Shown here one piece after another: positions 40,636 through 54,586 of a stretch of DNA of 55,841 nucleotides; the stretch's first letter is position 1, and the number at the start of each line of letters is the position of its first letter. A program made the translations under genes and the position numbers. A model generated the notes under the pieces. That model saw only the letters and a list, made by a program, of their open reading frames with translations. It was not told the origin of the DNA and did not search any database. This DNA is from a virus (taxonomy: Duplodnaviria > Caudoviricetes): the IMG/VR virus record IMGVR_UViG_3300038460_000023, positions 1-55,841 of that record. One strand, given 5' to 3'.

Positions 40636-40681
40636 TGGTTTAAAATTTTAAACTGTGTTTATATAGGTGTTATCGGCAACC

Positions 40682-41089
40682 TTAAGAGTCTCCGGCCGTA
40701 AGTGCATCGTTTAAACTGTCAATTACGTCACCCATATTATAAGCTGCTTGAAATAAGTATTCATCTCCGCCAAGTTCGGCAATGGTTTCGATATGTAATT
40801 TTAAGCAAGCAGACTTATAAATTAAGTCGTTGATAATATTTGTCATTCCCTTTTCAGATGCTTCTTCCATTGATATGGATAAATCATCACCACAGTTTCC
40901 ACACATGGAAGCATCTTCTATATCACTAATACTGTTTTCGCATTTACATTTTCTTCCATTTCCTTCAGCTATTTGAATAGCTTCTAAAACTTTACCCTTT
41001 ACCTGCATTCCTACTTCAGATAAATCCTGGTTCCTTAAAAATATTTCTACAGATTTTAAGGCATTTAACATTTGTTTTTCTTTTGTCAT
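40682..41089 (-). CDS. Cassette 1 gene, hypothetical (CxC...CxxC)
   Basis: 135 aa; stop lies 4 nt from the GTTATCGGC boundary. Confidence 0.7.
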   Translation of the reverse strand: MTKEKQMLNALKSVEIFLRNQDLSEVGMQVKGKVLEAIQIAEGNGRKCKCENSISDIEDASMCGNCGDDLSISMEEASEKGMTNIINDLIYKSACLKLHIETIAELGGDEYLFQAAYNMGDVIDSLNDALTAGDS

Positions 41090-41123
41090 ATATTTAGTTA
41101 TTAATTATTTAACAATAAAGGCA

Positions 41124-41219
41124 GCCGATAACACGCAATATAAAAAATTGGCTATCAAACTGCTGTGTAACTTGAAAGTGACTACAAAGCCAACTTTTCA
41201 TATTGCCACCGTTATACGC
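41124..41219 (+). repeat. attC-like site 1
   Basis: GCCGATAAC AC GCAATAT AAAAAATTGGCT...AGCCAACTTTTC ATATTGC CACC GTTATACGC. Confidence 0.85.
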
Positions 41220-41221
41220 AA

Positions 41222-41425
41222 TTAAGATTCTGCCAACTTTGAGATGGTTGCAATATAAGTTTCATTGCATCTCGTCCTTTGATTTTGCCAATCAATAAAC
41301 TTCTCCATTAGTTTGTCATTACCTGTATTTGAAATCATTTCGACAAGTTCAGTTTCAATTTTTGATAAACTTTCAACTTGCTTTTTATGTATTTCAATTT
41401 TAGTTTGAATTAGTTTTTCATTCAT
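41222..41425 (-). CDS. Cassette 2 gene, hypothetical
   Basis: 67 aa; stop lies 2 nt from the core site. Confidence 0.65.
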   Translation of the reverse strand: MNEKLIQTKIEIHKKQVESLSKIETELVEMISNTGNDKLMEKFIDWQNQRTRCNETYIATISKLAES

Positions 41426-41429
41426 AATT

Positions 41430-41573
41430 TTATTTTTTACGTTTTTTCTTTTTAGGAGTAAAATTTGTTACTTTTTTACGGTGTTTTTTGAAATATCCAT
41501 CTTCAGTAATCCAATCAGGGTCTTCAACTAAAATTATATTTCCGTTTCCGTCTGTTTTCTCAATCATTCTCAT
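41430..41573 (-). CDS. Cassette 2 small basic protein (47 aa)
   Basis: MRMIEKTDGNGNIILVEDPDWITEDGYFKKHRKKVTNFTPKKKKRKK; not in the ORF track. Confidence 0.55.
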   Translation of the reverse strand: MRMIEKTDGNGNIILVEDPDWITEDGYFKKHRKKVTNFTPKKKKRKK

Positions 41574-41603
41574 ATAGTTTCGATTTAAAAATTAATAATA
41601 AAA

Positions 41604-41736
41604 GCGTATAACAACAAATATAAAATAAAGCGGGTTATCTGCGTTTCGTAGCGTCAGCTCGCATCAAAGTTTATTGCAGTTTGATAACTCTGCTCACCAA
41701 ATACCGCTTCATTTCATATTTGCGACCGTTATATGC
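41604..41736 (+). repeat. attC-like site 2
   Basis: GCGTATAAC AA CAAATAT AAAATAAAGCGG...CCGCTTCATTTC ATATTTG CGACC GTTATATGC. Confidence 0.85.
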
Positions 41737-41747
41737 AAGGCGAAGAA

Positions 41748-41924
41748 TCACTCCGAATTAAGTTTAGTGGGAGTAATTTTATTATTTTTTTTGCTCACCC
41801 GCTTTAAAAATTCACGAATAAGCATAGTTGTTTGCCCTCTCATACTTCGGTTAAGCTCTTTACATGCTTTCATATAGTCTGCATGTTCTTGGTCGGTAAG
41901 TTCTACTTTTTCAATAGTTTTCAT
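41748..41924 (-). CDS. Cassette 3 ribbon-helix-helix-like regulator (58 aa)
   Basis: MKTIEKVELTDQEHADYMKACKELNRSMRGQTTMLIREFL...; ATGA overlap with the upstream gene; not in the ORF track. Confidence 0.55.
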   Translation of the reverse strand: MKTIEKVELTDQEHADYMKACKELNRSMRGQTTMLIREFLKRVSKKNNKITPTKLNSE

Positions 41925-42127
41925 CCTTCAGTTATATCGTGATGTCCTAATCCACTAGGGTTATTATTTCCATTCAATAGTGATGTAAAAGGATAGACTA
42001 AATCAGATTCTGGAAATTTAATCAAATACTTTTCTATGTACTTACGAGCTTTTTCTTTATCTCCATTTAATGCAGATTCGGCTATTTTAACCAATTCGGT
42101 ATAGCCTTTAGTTCTTGGTATTTCCAT
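41921..42127 (-). CDS. Cassette 3 hypothetical protein
   Basis: 68-aa ORF in a tight three-gene operon. Confidence 0.6.
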   Translation of the reverse strand: MEIPRTKGYTELVKIAESALNGDKEKARKYIEKYLIKFPESDLVYPFTSLLNGNNNPSGLGHHDITEG

Positions 42128-42128
42128 T

Positions 42129-42344
42129 TTATTTAATTATTACGGTTTTAAGAGTTTTTTCATTAATTAACATCCAGTCTTCATGCCCACCATCATAGAT
42201 ATTTACATCATATGTAAATCTTACTATTTTATATCCAACATTAGACATCTTGTTTTGAATCGTTTTTCCATTTACCATTTTCATACCTGCAAACACTGGT
42301 ACTCTTTTTTCTGTTGTGGCTGTTTTATTACTTATTAAATTCAT
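42129..42344 (-). CDS. Cassette 3 hypothetical protein
   Basis: 71-aa ORF immediately after the internal promoter. Confidence 0.6.
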   Translation of the reverse strand: MNLISNKTATTEKRVPVFAGMKMVNGKTIQNKMSNVGYKIVRFTYDVNIYDGGHEDWMLINEKTLKTVIIK

Positions 42345-42370
42345 GGCTATTTGTTTTAATTATTATACGT

Positions 42371-42402
42371 CAAAATTACGTAATAGTTTCGTAATAAACA
42401 AA
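42371..42402 (-). promoter_or_regulatory. Cassette-internal Bacteroidota sigma-A promoter
   Basis: On the - strand: TTTG-N20-TAATTTTG, with direct repeats TATTACG in the spacer. Confidence 0.65.
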
Positions 42403-42484
42403 TAATTTTAAAGAAAAATAACCCACCCTAAAAAAATAATAAAATTACCTTGCTTCGTGTTAGTTTATAGCTGAAAAACGCCCA

Positions 42485-42580
42485 GCATATAACACCGTAT
42501 ATAAAACATAGCCAGATAGTTTAGCGATTAATTGCAAGGTTCGTGCGTGGCTACGTTTCATATACGCCAACGTTATGTGT
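42485..42580 (+). repeat. attC-like site 3
   Basis: GCATATAAC AC CGTATAT AAAACATAGCCA...TGGCTACGTTTC ATATACG CCAAC GTTATGTGT. Confidence 0.85.
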
Positions 42581-42584
42581 AATA

Positions 42585-42848
42585 CTAAGCCAGTTCGCCA
42601 AATGGATAAAATTGAATAGTAATACCACAATTTGATTCAAGTTCCGCAATTATATGACCATCTTTAAAGCATTGATATACGGTTGTTGTTATATCGTTAT
42701 ACATTCCTTTACCTATTGTTTTTTCAAATGGCTTAATTTCATCGACTTTATGAAATACGGATTCGCATTTTTTATCAGTAGAAAACCAAATTGAGTCTTC
42801 GCCAAATCCGCGTTCAATTGTCCTAATTTTTTGATTTTTAGTTTCCAT
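42585..42848 (-). CDS. Cassette 4 gene, hypothetical
   Basis: METKNQKIR..., ATG at 42848; the frame stays open into attC4. Confidence 0.65.
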   Translation of the reverse strand: METKNQKIRTIERGFGEDSIWFSTDKKCESVFHKVDEIKPFEKTIGKGMYNDITTTVYQCFKDGHIIAELESNCGITIQFYPFGELA

Positions 42849-42862
42849 AATAATAAAGTAAA

Positions 42863-42998
42863 ACACATAACACACGCTCATACGTAACGTGGGTTTTAGT
42901 GCCAATTTGGTACGGTCTGCTTCTAATTTAGTCCAGTAACGTGGGATAAGTAACCGCTTCGAAATCCCACGCTACGCATAGCGTCAACCGTTACCAGC
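42863..42998 (+). repeat. attC-like site 4
   Basis: ACACATAAC AC ACGCT(C)AT ACGTAACGTGGG...CCCACGCTACGC ATAGCGT CAACC GTTACCAGC; one bulged C in the left arm. Confidence 0.85.
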
Positions 42999-43053
42999 AA
43001 TGTTAAAAAAGTGGCGGAGGTTGCTTCTCTGTTGTTCCCGAAGGAGCTTTAAT

Positions 43054-43860
43054 TTATTCACCACTTAAACGGTCTTTTGTTATTTTTATCGCTTTAGGAT
43101 TAATATCACAACCAATAAAATTACGGTTTAATTCTTTGCATACTTCGGCAGTTGTTCCGCTACCTAGATAAAAGTCTGCGACTAAATCACCTTCATTACT
43201 ACTTGCTTTTATTATTCGTTCAATTAATGCTTTTGGTTTTTGAGTATCATATCCAAGCCTTTCTTTTGAAACAGGGTTTAAAAACGGAATATCCCAAACA
43301 TCGTCAACAATTCTATCAGTTTGTATATGGTATTCTATTTCTCCGTTTTCATTTCTTAAACTTTTACCTTTCCCATCATTCTTATTCTGTTTCTTTGGTT
43401 TATTTATTGGCTCTCTAATTTCAGTTACTATATTTTTATTACCATACATCAAAATTACATCGTGCATATTTTGCCACCTATCTTTTGAAGTCATTGTCCA
43501 TCTTTTATACCTCCACGATATTTCATTTTTAAAACAGTTATACCCAAAAACATCATCCATAATACATCTCATCCAATGGTTTATTTTAGTGTCCATTTGT
43601 AAATAAATACTTCCTGTATCTTTTAAAATACGGTGCATTTCTTTTATTCGTGGTATGTAGTGGTTTTCAATTTCACTTCTAATTGGTTTTAAATCTTGGT
43701 AGTCTGCAAACTTCCTACCAGTTCCGTAAAGTATATCACAGTAAATTAAGTCTATTGTGTTACTTTCAATGGTTTTCATTAGCTCCAAATTATCGGAACA
43801 AAAAACACTGCTGGTAACACCGTGTATAGGTAATGTGGGGGTTTGTTGTAATTTAATCAT
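43054..43860 (-). CDS. Cassette 5 DNA methyltransferase (N4-C/N6-A, beta class)
   Basis: IDLIYCDILYG (DPPY variant), YDTQKPKALIERII, VADFYLGSGTT. Confidence 0.88.
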   Translation of the reverse strand: MIKLQQTPTLPIHGVTSSVFCSDNLELMKTIESNTIDLIYCDILYGTGRKFADYQDLKPIRSEIENHYIPRIKEMHRILKDTGSIYLQMDTKINHWMRCIMDDVFGYNCFKNEISWRYKRWTMTSKDRWQNMHDVILMYGNKNIVTEIREPINKPKKQNKNDGKGKSLRNENGEIEYHIQTDRIVDDVWDIPFLNPVSKERLGYDTQKPKALIERIIKASSNEGDLVADFYLGSGTTAEVCKELNRNFIGCDINPKAIKITKDRLSGE

Positions 43861-43943
43861 TTGTTCTCGTATTTAAGTTATTTGTAATTTGACAGGGCAG
43901 TGCTTCGTAATCCCACACTACCCATACACGAACCGTTAGCATT
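43810..43943 (+). repeat. attC-like site 5
   Basis: GCTGGTAAC AC CGTGTAT AGGTAATGTGGG...CCCACACTACCC ATACACG AACC GTTAGCATT. Confidence 0.85.
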
Positions 43944-43947
43944 CATA

Positions 43948-44175
43948 CTAAAACCACGCATCAGCATCATAGGTTTCAGTTAATTTAACAACTCTGAATT
44001 TTACATCTGGAGTTATTTTCTTTTCAGCTTCCGCAAGTTCTTTTGCCTGTTTACGGTTTAAGAATTTATGATAGTATTCTTTTGTCTTTTTATTGTGCGT
44101 ATGATAAACTATTTCAGGTGCTTCACCTTCTTTTTGTGCTTGCACGTAATAATGAATAATTGATTGTTTTGCCAT
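43948..44175 (-). CDS. Cassette 6 gene, hypothetical
   Basis: 75 aa; stop lies 4 nt from the core site. Confidence 0.65.
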   Translation of the reverse strand: MAKQSIIHYYVQAQKEGEAPEIVYHTHNKKTKEYYHKFLNRKQAKELAEAEKKITPDVKFRVVKLTETYDADAWF

Positions 44176-44211
44176 TTTATTTATAAATTAATGATTAATA
44201 ATAAAGTACGA

Positions 44212-44345
44212 AATGCTAACACATAATATAAAAAATTGGGGTTTAATCGGTAATTCCGATTTTTCTACCCGCTTGAAACTTTGTAGCGGTTGATAATGGA
44301 GTAGCCACGCAATCCCCAACTTTTCATATTATCAACGTTAGGCAC
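44212..44345 (+). repeat. attC-like site 6
   Basis: AATGCTAAC AC ATAATAT AAAAAATTGGGG...CCCCAACTTTTC ATATTAT CAAC GTTAGGCAC. Confidence 0.85.
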
Positions 44346-44373
44346 AATACAAAGACCGTGCTTCGTTGATACA

Positions 44374-45174
44374 TTAGTTTAAGTTTGGTATTTGTTCTTT
44401 TAAGTATTTACTAATCATCCAATGTTTAAGTTTAGGTGTTGCTGTCATATTATACAATTCTTTCCAATCAACATTTTGAATGAGTTTCTTAATTTCGTCT
44501 TTAAATTCTGTGTTGTTTATTGTAAAGTATATTTGTTGGCAATATTGCCCCTCATATTCGCATATTTTGCCAATGCTCGAACCAAACCCACACACACTAA
44601 AATCGTAACTTGTAGGTATTTTATCATTTCTACTTTTACCATTTGCAACGCCTCTTAATTCAACATCTTTTAAATCAAAATTTGGTTTCTGATTTAATCC
44701 ATTTGGGTTTCGTTTGTAAATATTTAATACACAATGCACCGTTCTATCACTATATTTTCTTTTTCCCAAATCCTCGCTATAAACCAAATCAAACTCATAC
44801 ATATACATGTTGTTGTTTAATTGGCTTATTGGTAATATAAAAGCCACATAGTCACCTTGTGTTATCGCATTCTTAAAAAACTGCACACTTGTATAATTTC
44901 CTTTGCCGTATGGCGGATTTCCAACAATACACCTACCTTTAAAATAAGGCAAATCTAATTCTAAGTAGTTTTTTTGTTCAATATTTTCCGCTTCGGGTTC
45001 AATATCAAAAGCAAGGTAGTTATTGTCTAAGTAAGGTAAAAATATACCACTCCCCGCACTTGGCTCTAACCATTGGGTTATGTTTTCAACTCCAATTACT
45101 TCCTTTGTTTTCTTCACACAATATTCTGCTAAATCAGAAGGTGTGTAGTATTTGTCTAAATTTATTTTTGCCAT
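44374..45174 (-). CDS. Cassette 7 DNA adenine methyltransferase
   Basis: DKYYTP, LEPSAGSG, GNPPYG and AFILP motifs. Confidence 0.85.
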   Translation of the reverse strand: MAKINLDKYYTPSDLAEYCVKKTKEVIGVENITQWLEPSAGSGIFLPYLDNNYLAFDIEPEAENIEQKNYLELDLPYFKGRCIVGNPPYGKGNYTSVQFFKNAITQGDYVAFILPISQLNNNMYMYEFDLVYSEDLGKRKYSDRTVHCVLNIYKRNPNGLNQKPNFDLKDVELRGVANGKSRNDKIPTSYDFSVCGFGSSIGKICEYEGQYCQQIYFTINNTEFKDEIKKLIQNVDWKELYNMTATPKLKHWMISKYLKEQIPNLN

Positions 45175-45197
45175 AATTTTGAATTTAATAAAGTACT

Positions 45198-45292
45198 GTG
45201 CCTAACACAGTGTATAAGCAATGGCACGGAAAGTTAGTGCTAATTTGAAAGTGCGTACAAGTGCCACTGCTCATACACGAAACGTTATGGGC
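45198..45292 (+). repeat. attC-like site 7
   Basis: GTGCCTAAC ACA GTGTAT AAGCAATGGCAC...GTGCCACTGCTC ATACAC GAAAC GTTATGGGC. Confidence 0.85.
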
Positions 45293-45337
45293 AACCGTAA
45301 GACCGCTCCGAAGAACAGTCCTACGAACCCCAAACTT

Positions 45338-45631
45338 TTACAATATGACATTTTTAGCCATATTGATTTCTTTGTTAGAAAGTAGCCGATAACATTGTTC
45401 AAATACTTTCTTTGGTGACCAACTAACATATCCATCTTCGTAAGTGACCATATAGCCATCGCCATAAGTTTCACGGTCTGAAATGTCTTGTTTCTTAACG
45501 TTCTTGTAAAAGTCTGTCTCTGTCATTGGAACTCCTTTTACAATTTTAGTTCCAACATAGAGTTCCGTATTTAGATACTCTTGTCTTGAATTAATGCACG
45601 AAGGCTGGAAATCATCTTTTATGTCGTCCAT
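45338..45631 (-). CDS. Cassette 8 phage protein (YxGTK...GYxVxYEDGYxSWSPK domain)
   Basis: YVGTKIVKGVPMT...GYMVTYEDGYVSWSPKKVFEQCY; I recall this domain as often fused to DUF2829-type proteins. Confidence 0.7.
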   Translation of the reverse strand: MDDIKDDFQPSCINSRQEYLNTELYVGTKIVKGVPMTETDFYKNVKKQDISDRETYGDGYMVTYEDGYVSWSPKKVFEQCYRLLSNKEINMAKNVIL

Positions 45632-45684
45632 AGTATTAATTGGATTTTATAAAGCCCGTCCAAGGCTATATCTTAAAAACGGCA

Positions 45685-45784
45685 GCCCATAACACGTTGT
45701 ATACGTCAGTTTTGCTGAATAATTTCGTATAAATTGGTAGCTGTGTGCAGGCAAAACCGAACGCATACAACCACCATTATTATT
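45685..45784 (+). repeat. attC-like site 8 (terminal, degenerate core)
   Basis: GCCCATAAC AC GTTGTAT ACGTCAGTTTTGC...GCAAAACCGAACGC ATACAAC CACC ATTAT (ATT in place of GTT at 45776). Confidence 0.75.
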
Positions 45785-46292
45785 TTGTTTTACTCTTCTT
45801 AGAAAGGGCCGGGATTGGATCTGGAATAGAGTCGCCCTCCCGGCCCGATGCAAAGTTCTCGGCATAGAATTTTTGCATATTTGAATAATAGTGCATCGCA
45901 TCTTCGACGCTCATCTTTTTAGTTGTTAACCGGAATGGAGTTTTAAAAAACTTTCCAGTTCTGATGTCTTTTAGAGACGGTATGGCCTCCCATTCCTTTT
46001 TAAGCCTTTCTTTGTAATCTTCTGGAAGGCAATAGTACATACAAAATTCGTGGGTTTGCTCCTTGGAAGGATTCTCAAAATGACCGGTTTCTTTTAGCAC
46101 TCTATTGAAAAATGCGTAAGGAATGCCCCACATTGCATTGTTCTGGTCAAGACTTCTTATGTTTTCAACCTTTTCAATAGTGTATATGTAGCGACCATAT
46201 TTAAGATTCGAAATGGCATCTTGGAATTTTTCTCTTTCGTGAATTTCCTTTTTGCCAGTTTCGGTTACATCAACCCATGTTTGTATTTTCAT
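45780..46292 (-). CDS. NinB-like protein
   Basis: RSLDQNNAMWG and TTKKMS.ED...Y...IPDP motifs. Confidence 0.6.
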   Translation of the reverse strand: MKIQTWVDVTETGKKEIHEREKFQDAISNLKYGRYIYTIEKVENIRSLDQNNAMWGIPYAFFNRVLKETGHFENPSKEQTHEFCMYYCLPEDYKERLKKEWEAIPSLKDIRTGKFFKTPFRLTTKKMSVEDAMHYYSNMQKFYAENFASGREGDSIPDPIPALSKKSKTK

Positions 46293-53416: not shown

Positions 53417-53689
53417 CTAATAGCTTAAATTAAACAATTGATCCAATTTTTCCATATCCGAATCCCTTTCGTCTTCAGATTTATAATAGTGGAATACACG
53501 AGACTTATCGCCAGTCATGGCAAAGTAAATGTAAATCCCAAATTTACCACTAGTAGTACGGGTCGCTGTCTTTTCCTTGTCATTTGACAGGGCGACAGTG
53601 GAAGTTTCAAACGGCTCGTATCTTTTTATTGATACGGTCCGATACCTTATTTTTTGAATTTTAATAAACTCGGTTTTAGTTGTACTCAT
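53417..53689 (-). CDS. Hypothetical protein
   Basis: 90-aa ORF with an A-rich leader. Confidence 0.6.
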   Translation of the reverse strand: MSTTKTEFIKIQKIRYRTVSIKRYEPFETSTVALSNDKEKTATRTTSGKFGIYIYFAMTGDKSRVFHYYKSEDERDSDMEKLDQLFNLSY

Positions 53690-53704
53690 GATTTTAATTT
53701 TATG

Positions 53705-53938
53705 TTAAAAACTTTCAAATACTTTTTCCTGTAAAAACTCGATATCTTCTTTATCCAAAGAAACGGACGGCGAAATAAAGAGATACTTTAAAAAATATTT
53801 CATCTGCTTTAAGCTCATTTCTTTTATCAAAGTTACACACTGAGTACTTTGCCCGTTAATCTTAGAATCTATGATATAATCAAAGAATTCTTCCATGGTT
53901 TTAAAACCATATATTTTCAATGCCTTCTTGCTTACCAT
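53705..53938 (-). CDS. Hypothetical protein
   Basis: Likely ATG at 53938 (MVSKKALK...), just after the upstream stop. Confidence 0.6.
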   Translation of the reverse strand: MVSKKALKIYGFKTMEEFFDYIIDSKINGQSTQCVTLIKEMSLKQMKYFLKYLFISPSVSLDKEDIEFLQEKVFESF

Positions 53939-54290: not shown

Positions 54291-54373
54291 AATTTTATAT
54301 TTTATATTTGGTTTCATTACACCCCTTTCGGGGGTGTACTCTGAATTAATCCGGACTTGTAACCGGTAAAACA

Positions 54374-54586
54374 TTACAATAACGTCACTTTTGTGATATA
54401 AGACGCGTAAGGCTCGCTTTTCCCTGTCGAGACTACAATTAGTCTTTCTGTTGTTATTTTACGCCCATGGTGAGTTGCAATAGCGGTAAGGTGCTTATCT
54501 TTTTTATCAGAATAAAATACCTTGCCCGGCTTCCCGTTAGCTATTGCCCAGCTTTCAAAAGTGTATTGAGTATTTAATTTGCTCAT
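54374..54586 (-). CDS. Hypothetical protein
   Basis: 70-aa ORF. Confidence 0.6.
   Translation of the reverse strand: MSKLNTQYTFESWAIANGKPGKVFYSDKKDKHLTAIATHHGRKITTERLIVVSTGKSEPYASYITKVTLL

Follow-up and report, generated by a model that had tools for sequence, protein, structure and literature searches.

The recombination sites of integrons (attC) are imperfect palindromes of ~60-140 nt with inverted cores (AAC/GTT), an unpaired central spacer and a variable tip, and they lie co-oriented in arrays, such as the Vibrio cholerae repeat (VCR) arrays of Vibrio, with one small gene module per site. Each integron cassette carries a cassette-specific partner of the core at its far end, crossover takes place in one core only, and the array ends at a simple site beside the gene for a tyrosine recombinase. 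We analyzed an array of eight hairpins with the same organization in the IMG/VR virus record IMGVR_UViG_3300038460_000023 (here called the window, meaning the whole stretch of 55.8 kb). The combination of a simple array-end site and a recombinase gene was found in relatives and on bacterial chromosomes, not in the window, which with its eight sites and no recombinase matches the layout of a cluster of attC sites lacking integrase (CALIN). Judged from the sequence comparisons below, the eight hairpins are DNA recombination sites that bound gene cassettes. We further propose, with a probability of roughly 75%, that they belong to a non-canonical integron-like cassette array in which wobble pairs mark the strand to be folded and an Xer-type enzyme, supplied in trans in this phage, carries out recombination.

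Two other described systems share part of this organization. Xer recombinases act on folded single-stranded DNA in the integration of CTX phage at dif, where one strand forms a hairpin, mismatches mark that strand and the enzyme has no I2 insertion; unlike the family described here, this is a single integration of a whole phage, with no cassette arrays, cassette-specific cores or array-end site. Promoter stem-loops (PeSLs) are repeated stem-loops that border mobile accessory gene modules in variable regions of T4-type phages, where promoters and homologous recombination are presumed to account for their action. What sets the present family apart from PeSLs is that crossover falls in a fixed 4-nt core, that the stems covary and that a site-specific recombinase is associated with the arrays.

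Recombination by integrons is held to rest on a co-evolved pair, the extrahelical bases of attC and the I2 insertion of the integrase IntI (Escudero 2016). Two or three extrahelical bases occupy the R´´-L´´ arm of attC, and one of them, a G conserved in L´´, determines strand choice (Bouvier 2009). Sites of the present family lack such extrahelical bases, with rare exceptions, and have instead fixed G.T pairs, one of them nearly invariant; the additional unpaired bases are on the 5´ arm of their folding strand, whereas in attC such bases are on the R´´-L´´ arm. A complete integron also includes an integrase with I2, located near patch III, and this IntI-specific additional domain defines the integron integrases (Cury 2016; Ghaly 2022 preprint); the enzymes adjacent to the present arrays do not have it. 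Clusters of attC without integrase were previously found in virulent phages, including P12002L, with cassettes of orphan methyltransferases, 17 such clusters being counted among 10,705 phage genomes and the sites being treated as ordinary attC (Qi 2023, PMC9892861). The accessible part of that paper describes no wobble code, reversed polarity, Xer-type recombinase, chromosomal counterpart or comparable breadth. A literature search that left most subscription journals outside it returned no paper on a wobble code, reversed phage polarity or an Xer-type recombinase at such arrays.

Fold and strand asymmetry of the eight sites

The eight imperfect hairpins are co-oriented and lie at 41129-45779, between small minus-strand genes. 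They are listed below with an attI-like half-site, with plus-strand coordinates running from TAAC to GTTA for the hairpins. Scores are those of R1, a covariance model made from these eight sites, which they match by construction. The caret marks the proposed cut.

Site 1 (s1): 41129-41214, minus strand, short class, 86 nt, R1 89.6 bits; last full hairpin in the gene sense
Site 2 (s2): 41609-41731, minus strand, long class, 123 nt, R1 120.4 bits
Site 3 (s3): 42490-42575, minus strand, short class, 86 nt, R1 85.8 bits; homologous to site LC of L001, a relative of this phage
Site 4 (s4): 42868-42993, minus strand, long class, 126 nt, R1 110.1 bits; alone in the window in having its 7-bp stem interrupted by a one-base bulge
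Site 5 (s5): 43815-43938, minus strand, long class, 124 nt, R1 117.8 bits
Site 6 (s6): 44217-44340, minus strand, long class, 124 nt, R1 113.6 bits
Site 7 (s7): 45203-45287, minus strand, short class, 85 nt, R1 81 bits
Site 8 (s8): 45690-45779, minus strand, R1 66.6 bits; first hairpin in the gene sense, abutting a NinB-like gene
Terminal half-site: 40655-40672, minus strand, attI-like and without a hairpin; the minus strand reads GCCGATAAC^ACCTATATAAAC

On the gene-sense (minus) strand, the 5´ half of a site reads TAAC, a 4-5 nt spacer beginning G-K-T, a 6-7 bp stem ending TAT, G, N4, G, N6 and the loop, and the 3´ half reads N6, T, N4, T, a stem that starts with ATA, a spacer of 2-3 nt whose last base is T, and GTTA. 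The 3´ spacer ends GT in six sites, TT in s2 and TGT in s7. Read on the plus strand, the inverted cores are TAAC in 8/8 sites and GTTA in 7/8; site 8 has a degenerate outer core (TAAT on the minus strand, ATTA on the plus) and an imperfect N4 block. Core to core, the sites fall into two size classes of 85-90 nt and 123-126 nt. When R1 was run with filters off, only these eight sites were found in the window, the next matches being the reverse strands of the same sites at 14-21 bits, and a pattern of the shared letters matched 5/8 sites versus none in 100 shuffles.

A preliminary description of this DNA, made from its letters, had given the same arm layout on the plus strand (TAAC-N2/3-stem-AT-A-N4-A-N6, with C opposite both As), and this layout is present in the sequence. 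The N4 series it listed (AAAA, AAAT, AAAC, CGTA, GGTA, AAAA, AGCA, with site 8 imperfect) reads as stated, the spacer it described as longer on one arm measures 2-3 nt on the plus-strand left and 4-5 nt on the right, and the bulged C in the left arm was found in site 4 alone. The size classes given there, about 95-100 and about 133-136 nt, are those above with flanks added. It had also claimed that the A/C mismatches become G.T pairs only on the minus strand, so that one strand folds better. Consistent with this, folding of both strands gave a more stable minus strand in 7/8 sites with DNA parameters and in 7/8 with RNA parameters, the RNA-parameter folds of the minus strand having z values of -2.2 to -5.4.

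We also noted that the tips are similar within each class. Short-class loops (s1, s7 and many viral short-class sites) have a motif in common that is roughly CTTTCAAATTA, and long-class loops have GATTTCGAAG and further stretches in common. The "variable" tip is thus conserved in part, and could serve for binding or as a signal.

Evidence for recombination at the cores

In integron cassettes, the core is matched by an inverse core, and we observed the same relation here. The 10 nt past the GTTA of one site pair with the 10 nt before the TAAC of the next site at 8 or more positions in 63/140 cassettes, compared with 2/236 for the two flanks of one site and 16/2982 for random pairs. This core extension covers ~11 positions. 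In the window, 8/8 cassettes show it, with 5-10 Watson-Crick pairs in the first 11 positions versus 1-4 for same-site flanks. They include the last cassette (40673-41128), which ends in TAAC with no hairpin behind it and pairs at 9/11 positions plus one G.T. Position 7 of the extension constitutes a third wobble, being T.G in 61/77 cassettes and Watson-Crick in 2/77, and falls on the same strand as the other wobbles.

Comparisons between sites place the break in homology at the same core. Among 471 pairs of sites with homologous bodies, which are not independent of each other, 314 alignments start 0-4 nt from TAAC. Homology extends for 30 nt or more on the downstream side alone in 81 pairs, and on the upstream side alone in 3; the corresponding counts were 18 versus 3 at 100 nt or more, and 15 versus 0 under stricter criteria. 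A break at TAAC with continuation on one side places the crossover at the gene-sense 5´ edge of the hairpin, so that the hairpin body moves together with the gene behind it. The phage cassettes therefore differ from the canonical arrangement of gene then attC, with crossover in the 3´ core, an order that we did find in chromosomal arrays (15/15, see below). The direction of reading of the phage genes is towards the attI-like end.

Assembled contigs also carry joints at the cores. A DNA contig from run X7 joins 40668 to 42990, skipping 2321 nt (four cassettes), with flanks identical to the window over 213 and 1094 nt. Only 4 letters, GTTA, are in common at this joint, one end of which is the GTTA of site 4 (42990-42993) and the other the terminal half-site. 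A contig from metatranscriptome run X6 joins 44333 (site 6) to 45281 (site 7), skipping 947 nt and a single cassette (44341-45202), with 7 letters (AACGTTA) in common. Several more contigs diverge from the window exactly at site edges (41129, 41213, 42489 and 45287/8). Overlaps of 4-7 nt are too short for the joints to be repeat-driven assembly errors. A second X7 joint, 41735 to 42486, had only 20 letters on one side and was not used.

The X7 contig lacks exactly the four cassettes (40669-42989) nearest the attI-like end, which is where an integron-like system would add new ones.

A search with the NinB-like flank of the array returned a single close relative, L001 (~82% nucleotide identity, 95% complete). 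Synteny between L001 and the window stops exactly at the stop codon of the NinB-like gene, and beyond it L001 has three different sites and cassettes. L001 also carries the 75-aa (amino acid) cassette of the window, but elsewhere in its genome, and the homology begins at one core and stops at the other.

This second locus of L001 (685-1094) holds one cassette, with a TAAT-core hairpin, the homologue of the 75-aa frame and a TAAC^AC end, and it lies upstream of the homologue of the window open reading frame (ORF) 53417-53689. The syntenic position in the window (~53690-53710) has only TTTTTAAC^ATAAAATT, and may be an empty cassette target.

Exchange at a fixed core is not the only way to account for such a pattern. 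The hairpins might be selfish repeats of the repetitive extragenic palindrome (REP) or miniature inverted-repeat transposable element (MITE) type, or PeSL-like promoter stem-loops, shuffled by homologous or illegitimate recombination without a dedicated enzyme. Near-identical hairpin bodies do occur in many unrelated contexts, with homology confined to the site in 377/471 pairs; 19/25 array-bearing records have no recombinase; and the module that holds the window array shows weak similarity to genes of recombination and replication (NinB/Orf-like, exonuclease). Against this, breakpoints gather on one edge of one 4-nt core (81 versus 3 pairs), and homologous exchange within repeats of 85-125 nt would not place the joints where only 4-7 nt are in common. 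The co-orientation of sites is strict in 31/32 loci, and arrays end at a simple site beside a tyrosine recombinase gene in 4/4 fetched phage loci as well as on chromosomes. We therefore consider this explanation quite unlikely, and favor a dedicated site-specific system.

The site family in phages and chromosomes

A pattern scan of viral contigs gave at least 118 stretches, and R1 made 255 matches at E ≤ 0.001 in 100 of these viral loci (811 kb in total) and 60 more in 22 further sources. Among these sources were the cultured phages Flavobacterium phage vB_FspS_mumin9-1 (6), Polaribacter phage P12002L (1) and Cellulophaga phage phi12:1 (1). All three have the methyltransferase cassette gene of the window, and in P12002L the R1 matches fall in the methyltransferase region. 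Arrays were co-oriented in 31 of the 32 viral loci with three or more sites.

A structural scanner was used alongside R1. Its first version made 42 matches in shuffles versus 300 in real sequence (~14% false positives), and a tightened version gave 238 sites versus ~9 in shuffles. The 238 sites have TAAC in 224 and GTTA in 230, with length modes of 85-90 and 120-129 nt. Bulged sites such as s4 escape the scanner, which also requires the 5´ spacer to exceed the 3´ spacer in length. Spacer lengths were therefore taken from the model alignments, in which the 5´-arm spacer is always 4-6 nt long and the 3´-arm spacer 2 nt.

The idea that the sites are phage-specific was rejected, as R1 found long-class sites in all 5 Flavobacteriaceae genomes tried. 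Among Bacteroidia genomes sampled evenly from the class, 94/151 had R1 matches, one of the 94 being unpublished (G126). A Wocania contig (L261) from a metagenome-assembled genome (MAG) carries 19 R1 matches on one strand within 20 kb, with the intervening genes on the other strand. A scan of genome contigs with the short-class pattern gave 120 stretches, mostly due to chance, of which 18 held a structurally passing site, many on small MAG contigs.

The larger alignments, which were fitted to R1, bear out the covarying stems proposed in the preliminary description. In 141 distinct viral sites, 97.6% of cells were paired versus 67.9% in shuffles, with changes on both sides in 15/17 L-stem pairs, and in 36 distinct chromosomal sites 93.9% were paired versus 67.4%. 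The two conserved wobbles proposed there fared unequally. The inner one stands as G.U in 139/141 viral and 35/36 chromosomal sites. The outer one does not, since among the 141 viral sites this position is G.U in 99, A-U in 21, G-C in 12 and C-G in 7; the outer wobble is a preference, not a rule. The accompanying claim, that wobbles take the place of extrahelical bases, agrees with the rarity of bulges in the L stem, which were present in 8/141 viral and 5/36 chromosomal rows. No extra letter was seen in the 5´ arm of 135/141 viral and 31/36 chromosomal rows, or in the 3´ arm of 139/141 and 36/36 rows, respectively.

These alignments bear on whether the array is an ordinary attC cluster without integrase, recombined by a canonical host IntI and with wobbles that are incidental. 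The cores do fit RYYYAAC/GTTRRRY, and the folding-strand base after AAC is G, as conserved in most attC (Bouvier 2009). In addition, IntI1 was reported to recombine one attC of P12002L (Qi 2023, PMC9892861), which may belong to this family, and R1 finds family sites in that phage. Bulged bases, however, which define attC, are rare here, the arm with the extra unpaired bases is opposite to that of canonical attC, and an inner G.T fixed to the extent described above is not incidental. Together with the absence of an integron integrase described in the next section, these features make an ordinary attC cluster an unlikely explanation.

A recombinase gene at the array ends

In 4/4 fetched phage loci, a gene for a recombinase of 266-271 aa lies just downstream of the last TAAC of the array, co-oriented with the cassettes; the stretch that separates the two is short and holds additional TAAC copies and a TATAT motif. 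Its best family match is XerA-like, at 184-207 bits, which does not reach the curated cut-off of 220, while the integron-integrase model matches in two pieces at 147-168 bits, with a cut-off of 265. Where IntI4 (2a3v) has 77 residues, in the stretch that holds the IntI-specific insertion, the phage recombinase has 31, and it aligns without a break to XerA (4a8e residues 10-271, E 3.7e-40; also 5hxy). R135, H221-x-x-R224, H247 and Y256 are invariant in an alignment of four enzymes. By these sequence criteria, the array-adjacent enzyme is an Xer-type tyrosine recombinase without I2. The insertion in IntI accommodates the extrahelical bases of attC (Escudero 2016), and its absence from the phage enzyme thus fits the rarity of bulges in the sites.

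Homologues of the phage enzyme, of 360-396 aa, lie at the same end of several chromosomal arrays. One, of 370 aa, is 45% identical to the phage enzyme, is without the insertion and lies beside an array; it is followed on the folding strand by TAAC-ACTTGTATATAC, which resembles the terminal TAAC-ACCTATATAAAC of the window. More generally, the motif of the window half-site (TAAC, 3-4 nt, TATAT) recurs beside the recombinase genes of other arrays. The array-end recombinases are without the IntI-specific stretch, and no match above the integron-integrase cut-off was found in the window or in 10 bacterial genomes that hold such sites, which also argues against recombination by a canonical IntI.

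Between the last cassette and the recombinase start in three phage loci (L251 1120-1183, L252 and L254), we noted two or three extra copies of TAAC. The extra copies recall the repeated integrase-binding sites of attI. At the array end of the Wocania contig L261 there is a fragment of a recombinase gene (a 101-aa open frame), and the enzyme of this platform may be broken.

Gene polarity and a possible role in RNA

The preliminary description had allowed for an RNA-level role, given that the minus strand is the mRNA strand. On this explanation, the hairpins would serve mainly as terminators, RNase sites or mRNA stabilizers, with G.U pairs as an RNA feature. In this phage, the wobble strand is indeed the mRNA strand, RNA-parameter folding is better on it in 7/8 sites, and a T-rich tract follows the GTTA of each site at ~9-13 nt.

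A comparison of phage and chromosomal arrays separates the two strands. In 155 cassettes examined in viral loci, the longest frame was in the folding-strand sense in 112 and antisense in 1. In 15 cassettes of chromosomal loci, the counts were 0 and 15, and with this 0:15 polarity the chromosomal arrays look canonical, in that each gene precedes its site and the recombinase gene points into the array. In phage arrays, the cassette genes and that of the recombinase are thus reversed relative to the chromosomal arrays, whereas the wobble strand keeps a constant polarity towards the recombinase end in both. Since the wobble strand coincides with the mRNA strand in phages alone and its polarity is constant, the wobbles are a feature of the DNA strand. 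In Flavobacteriaceae chromosomal arrays, genes lie on the opposite strand in 15/15 cases with the same G.T strand and recombinase polarity, and an RNA role leaves the cassette-specific inverted repeats, the homology breaks at TAAC and the deletion joints at cores unexplained. The T tract, moreover, does not abut the stem. An RNA-level role therefore does not serve as a general explanation and is very improbable as the main function, and we retain recombination sites as our interpretation. A side effect of the hairpins on phage mRNA is possible.

The T-rich tract reads CTTTATT or GTTTTT on the minus strand and lies upstream of the next start codon (for example, 41105-41112 and 44195-44203); in other loci it often reads GTACGGTTTATTAA. 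A terminator scan limited to loops of 3-8 nt gave 6 matches versus 3.0 ± 1.4 expected, none of which was a whole site. Contigs from metatranscriptome run X6 run across sites 2 and 5, but contigs carry no strand or single-transcript information and DNA is possible in the library.

Proposed mechanism and its implications

We propose that the minus strand folds so that TAAC and GTTA form a core helix, followed by an asymmetric unpaired spacer (5´ arm, 4-6 nt; 3´ arm, 2 nt) and, beyond it, by 7 bp, an R.T pair (mostly G.T), 4 bp, a G.T pair, ~6 bp and the variable tip in its two sizes. Once a cassette is excised, its core helix would extend outwards over ~11 positions, with the third G.T. The three G.T pairs, which are A.C on the other strand, would together with the one-sided spacer mark the folding strand, replacing the bulged bases of attC. 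An Xer-type recombinase without I2 would then cut at the gene-sense 5´ edge (TAAC^). Strand exchange with a second hairpin would excise a unit consisting of the hairpin body and the gene behind it, and exchange with the simple array-end site (TAAC^A-N2-3-TATAT) would insert one. We infer a single-stranded substrate, with resolution by replication. Because the window encodes no recombinase, the enzyme would act in trans, from the host or a co-infecting phage. The payload would consist of DNA methyltransferases, probably directed against host restriction, and small genes.

This proposal retains the two central suggestions of the preliminary description. The suggestion of a distinct class of recombination site is supported by the core extensions, the homology break at TAAC, the joints at cores, the rarity of bulges and the fixed G.T; that of a divergent recombinase is supported by the I2-less Xer-type enzyme at the array end in 4/4 fetched phage loci and at chromosomal arrays.

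Several points weigh against the proposal. The family loci were fetched with a pattern that requires conserved letters in one site per locus, which biases the conservation towards structure, and alignments fitted to R1 lean the same way. A "two-wobble code" is too strict a description, the outer wobble being Watson-Crick in ~30% of family members. Identical hairpin bodies recur many times among the 471 site pairs of the linkage test, and the joints come from assembled contigs rather than raw reads. The window (a 79%-complete record) gave no match to TIGR02249, an integron-integrase model that detects ordinary Xer proteins as well, as it did in each of 14 control genomes, and no tyrosine recombinase was found in the 95%-complete relative L001. 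Recombinases matching PF00589 were detected in 6/25 array-bearing viral records, and only 1 of the four records that are at least 90% complete has one. The supply of a recombinase in trans by the host or a co-infecting phage is assumed, and the putative role of the Xer-type enzyme is drawn from its adjacency to the arrays, which is an association. Finally, given the reported activity of IntI1 on an attC of P12002L, sites of this kind might be used by a canonical integrase as well.

The bulges of attC and I2 are both absent or nearly so here, yet the comparative data and natural variants have the genetic outcome of an integron, an exchange of cassettes at one fixed core. Should the Xer-type enzyme be the catalyst, integron-type capture would be wider than has been detected, because the tools in use require the IntI-specific region (Cury 2016), and an origin of integrons from Xer would become directly testable. 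Many Bacteroidia phages, including cultured ones of Flavobacterium, Polaribacter and Cellulophaga, would then have a dedicated means of exchanging accessory genes, anti-restriction methyltransferases among them. In Flavobacterium phages, plating efficiency has been linked to a difference in methyltransferase content (Nilsson 2020). How attC and I2 arose, when each seems to need the other, is a question raised for integrons (Escudero 2016), and an I2-less system, if real, may represent the state before I2 or a parallel invention. The G.T code would also provide a simple experimental handle on strand choice. We suggest more tentatively, and at a little less than even odds, that there is a second, I2-less integron chemistry across Bacteroidia and their phages, with an Xer-type recombinase, strand choice coded by G.T pairs and spacer, mirror-image arrays in phages and borrowing of the enzyme.

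Cassettes and other features of the window

The virus record is linear, with an estimated completeness of 79% and 36.5% G+C. Its large plus-strand genes are probably structural genes, and its minus strand carries the module with weak matches to replication and recombination genes (NinB/Orf-like, exonuclease) inside which the array is located. The host is probably a member of the Bacteroidia. The cassettes and the conserved flank are as follows.

40673-41128, minus strand: cassette whose 135-aa ORF (40682-41089) belongs to no known family
41215-41608, minus strand: cassette with two small ORFs (41430-41573, 41222-41425)
41732-42489, minus strand: cassette with three small ORFs (42129-42344, 41921-42127, 41748-41924)
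42576-42867, minus strand: cassette with an 87-aa ORF (42585-42848)
42994-43814, minus strand: cassette with an N6/N4 DNA methyltransferase (43054-43782; PF01555, 7.7e-50; phrog_67)
43939-44216, minus strand: cassette with a 75-aa ORF (43948-44175)
44341-45202, minus strand: cassette with a 266-aa ORF (44374-45174), methyltransferase-like (phrog_5172 and phrog_799)
45288-45689, minus strand: cassette with a 97-aa ORF (45338-45631; phrog_9467)
45780-46292, minus strand: conserved flanking gene with a weak NinB/Orf-like match

The methyltransferase gene of the 42994-43814 cassette is common to Cellulophaga, Flavobacterium and Polaribacter phages. Its longest frame would start inside the loop of site 5 (ATG at 43860), a start that we rejected because the homologues in cultured phages start after their hairpins. 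The PF01555 match in this frame begins at residue 36, and a start at 43782, past the hairpin, fits the homologues better.

A search of the window against Rfam at gathering thresholds found no family at the hairpin sites and a single match elsewhere, to a type-P3 twister ribozyme (RF03154) at 54304-54374 on the minus strand (56.4 bits versus a gathering threshold of 39.9, E 1.1e-09). This match lies far from the array, just upstream of a minus-strand ORF.

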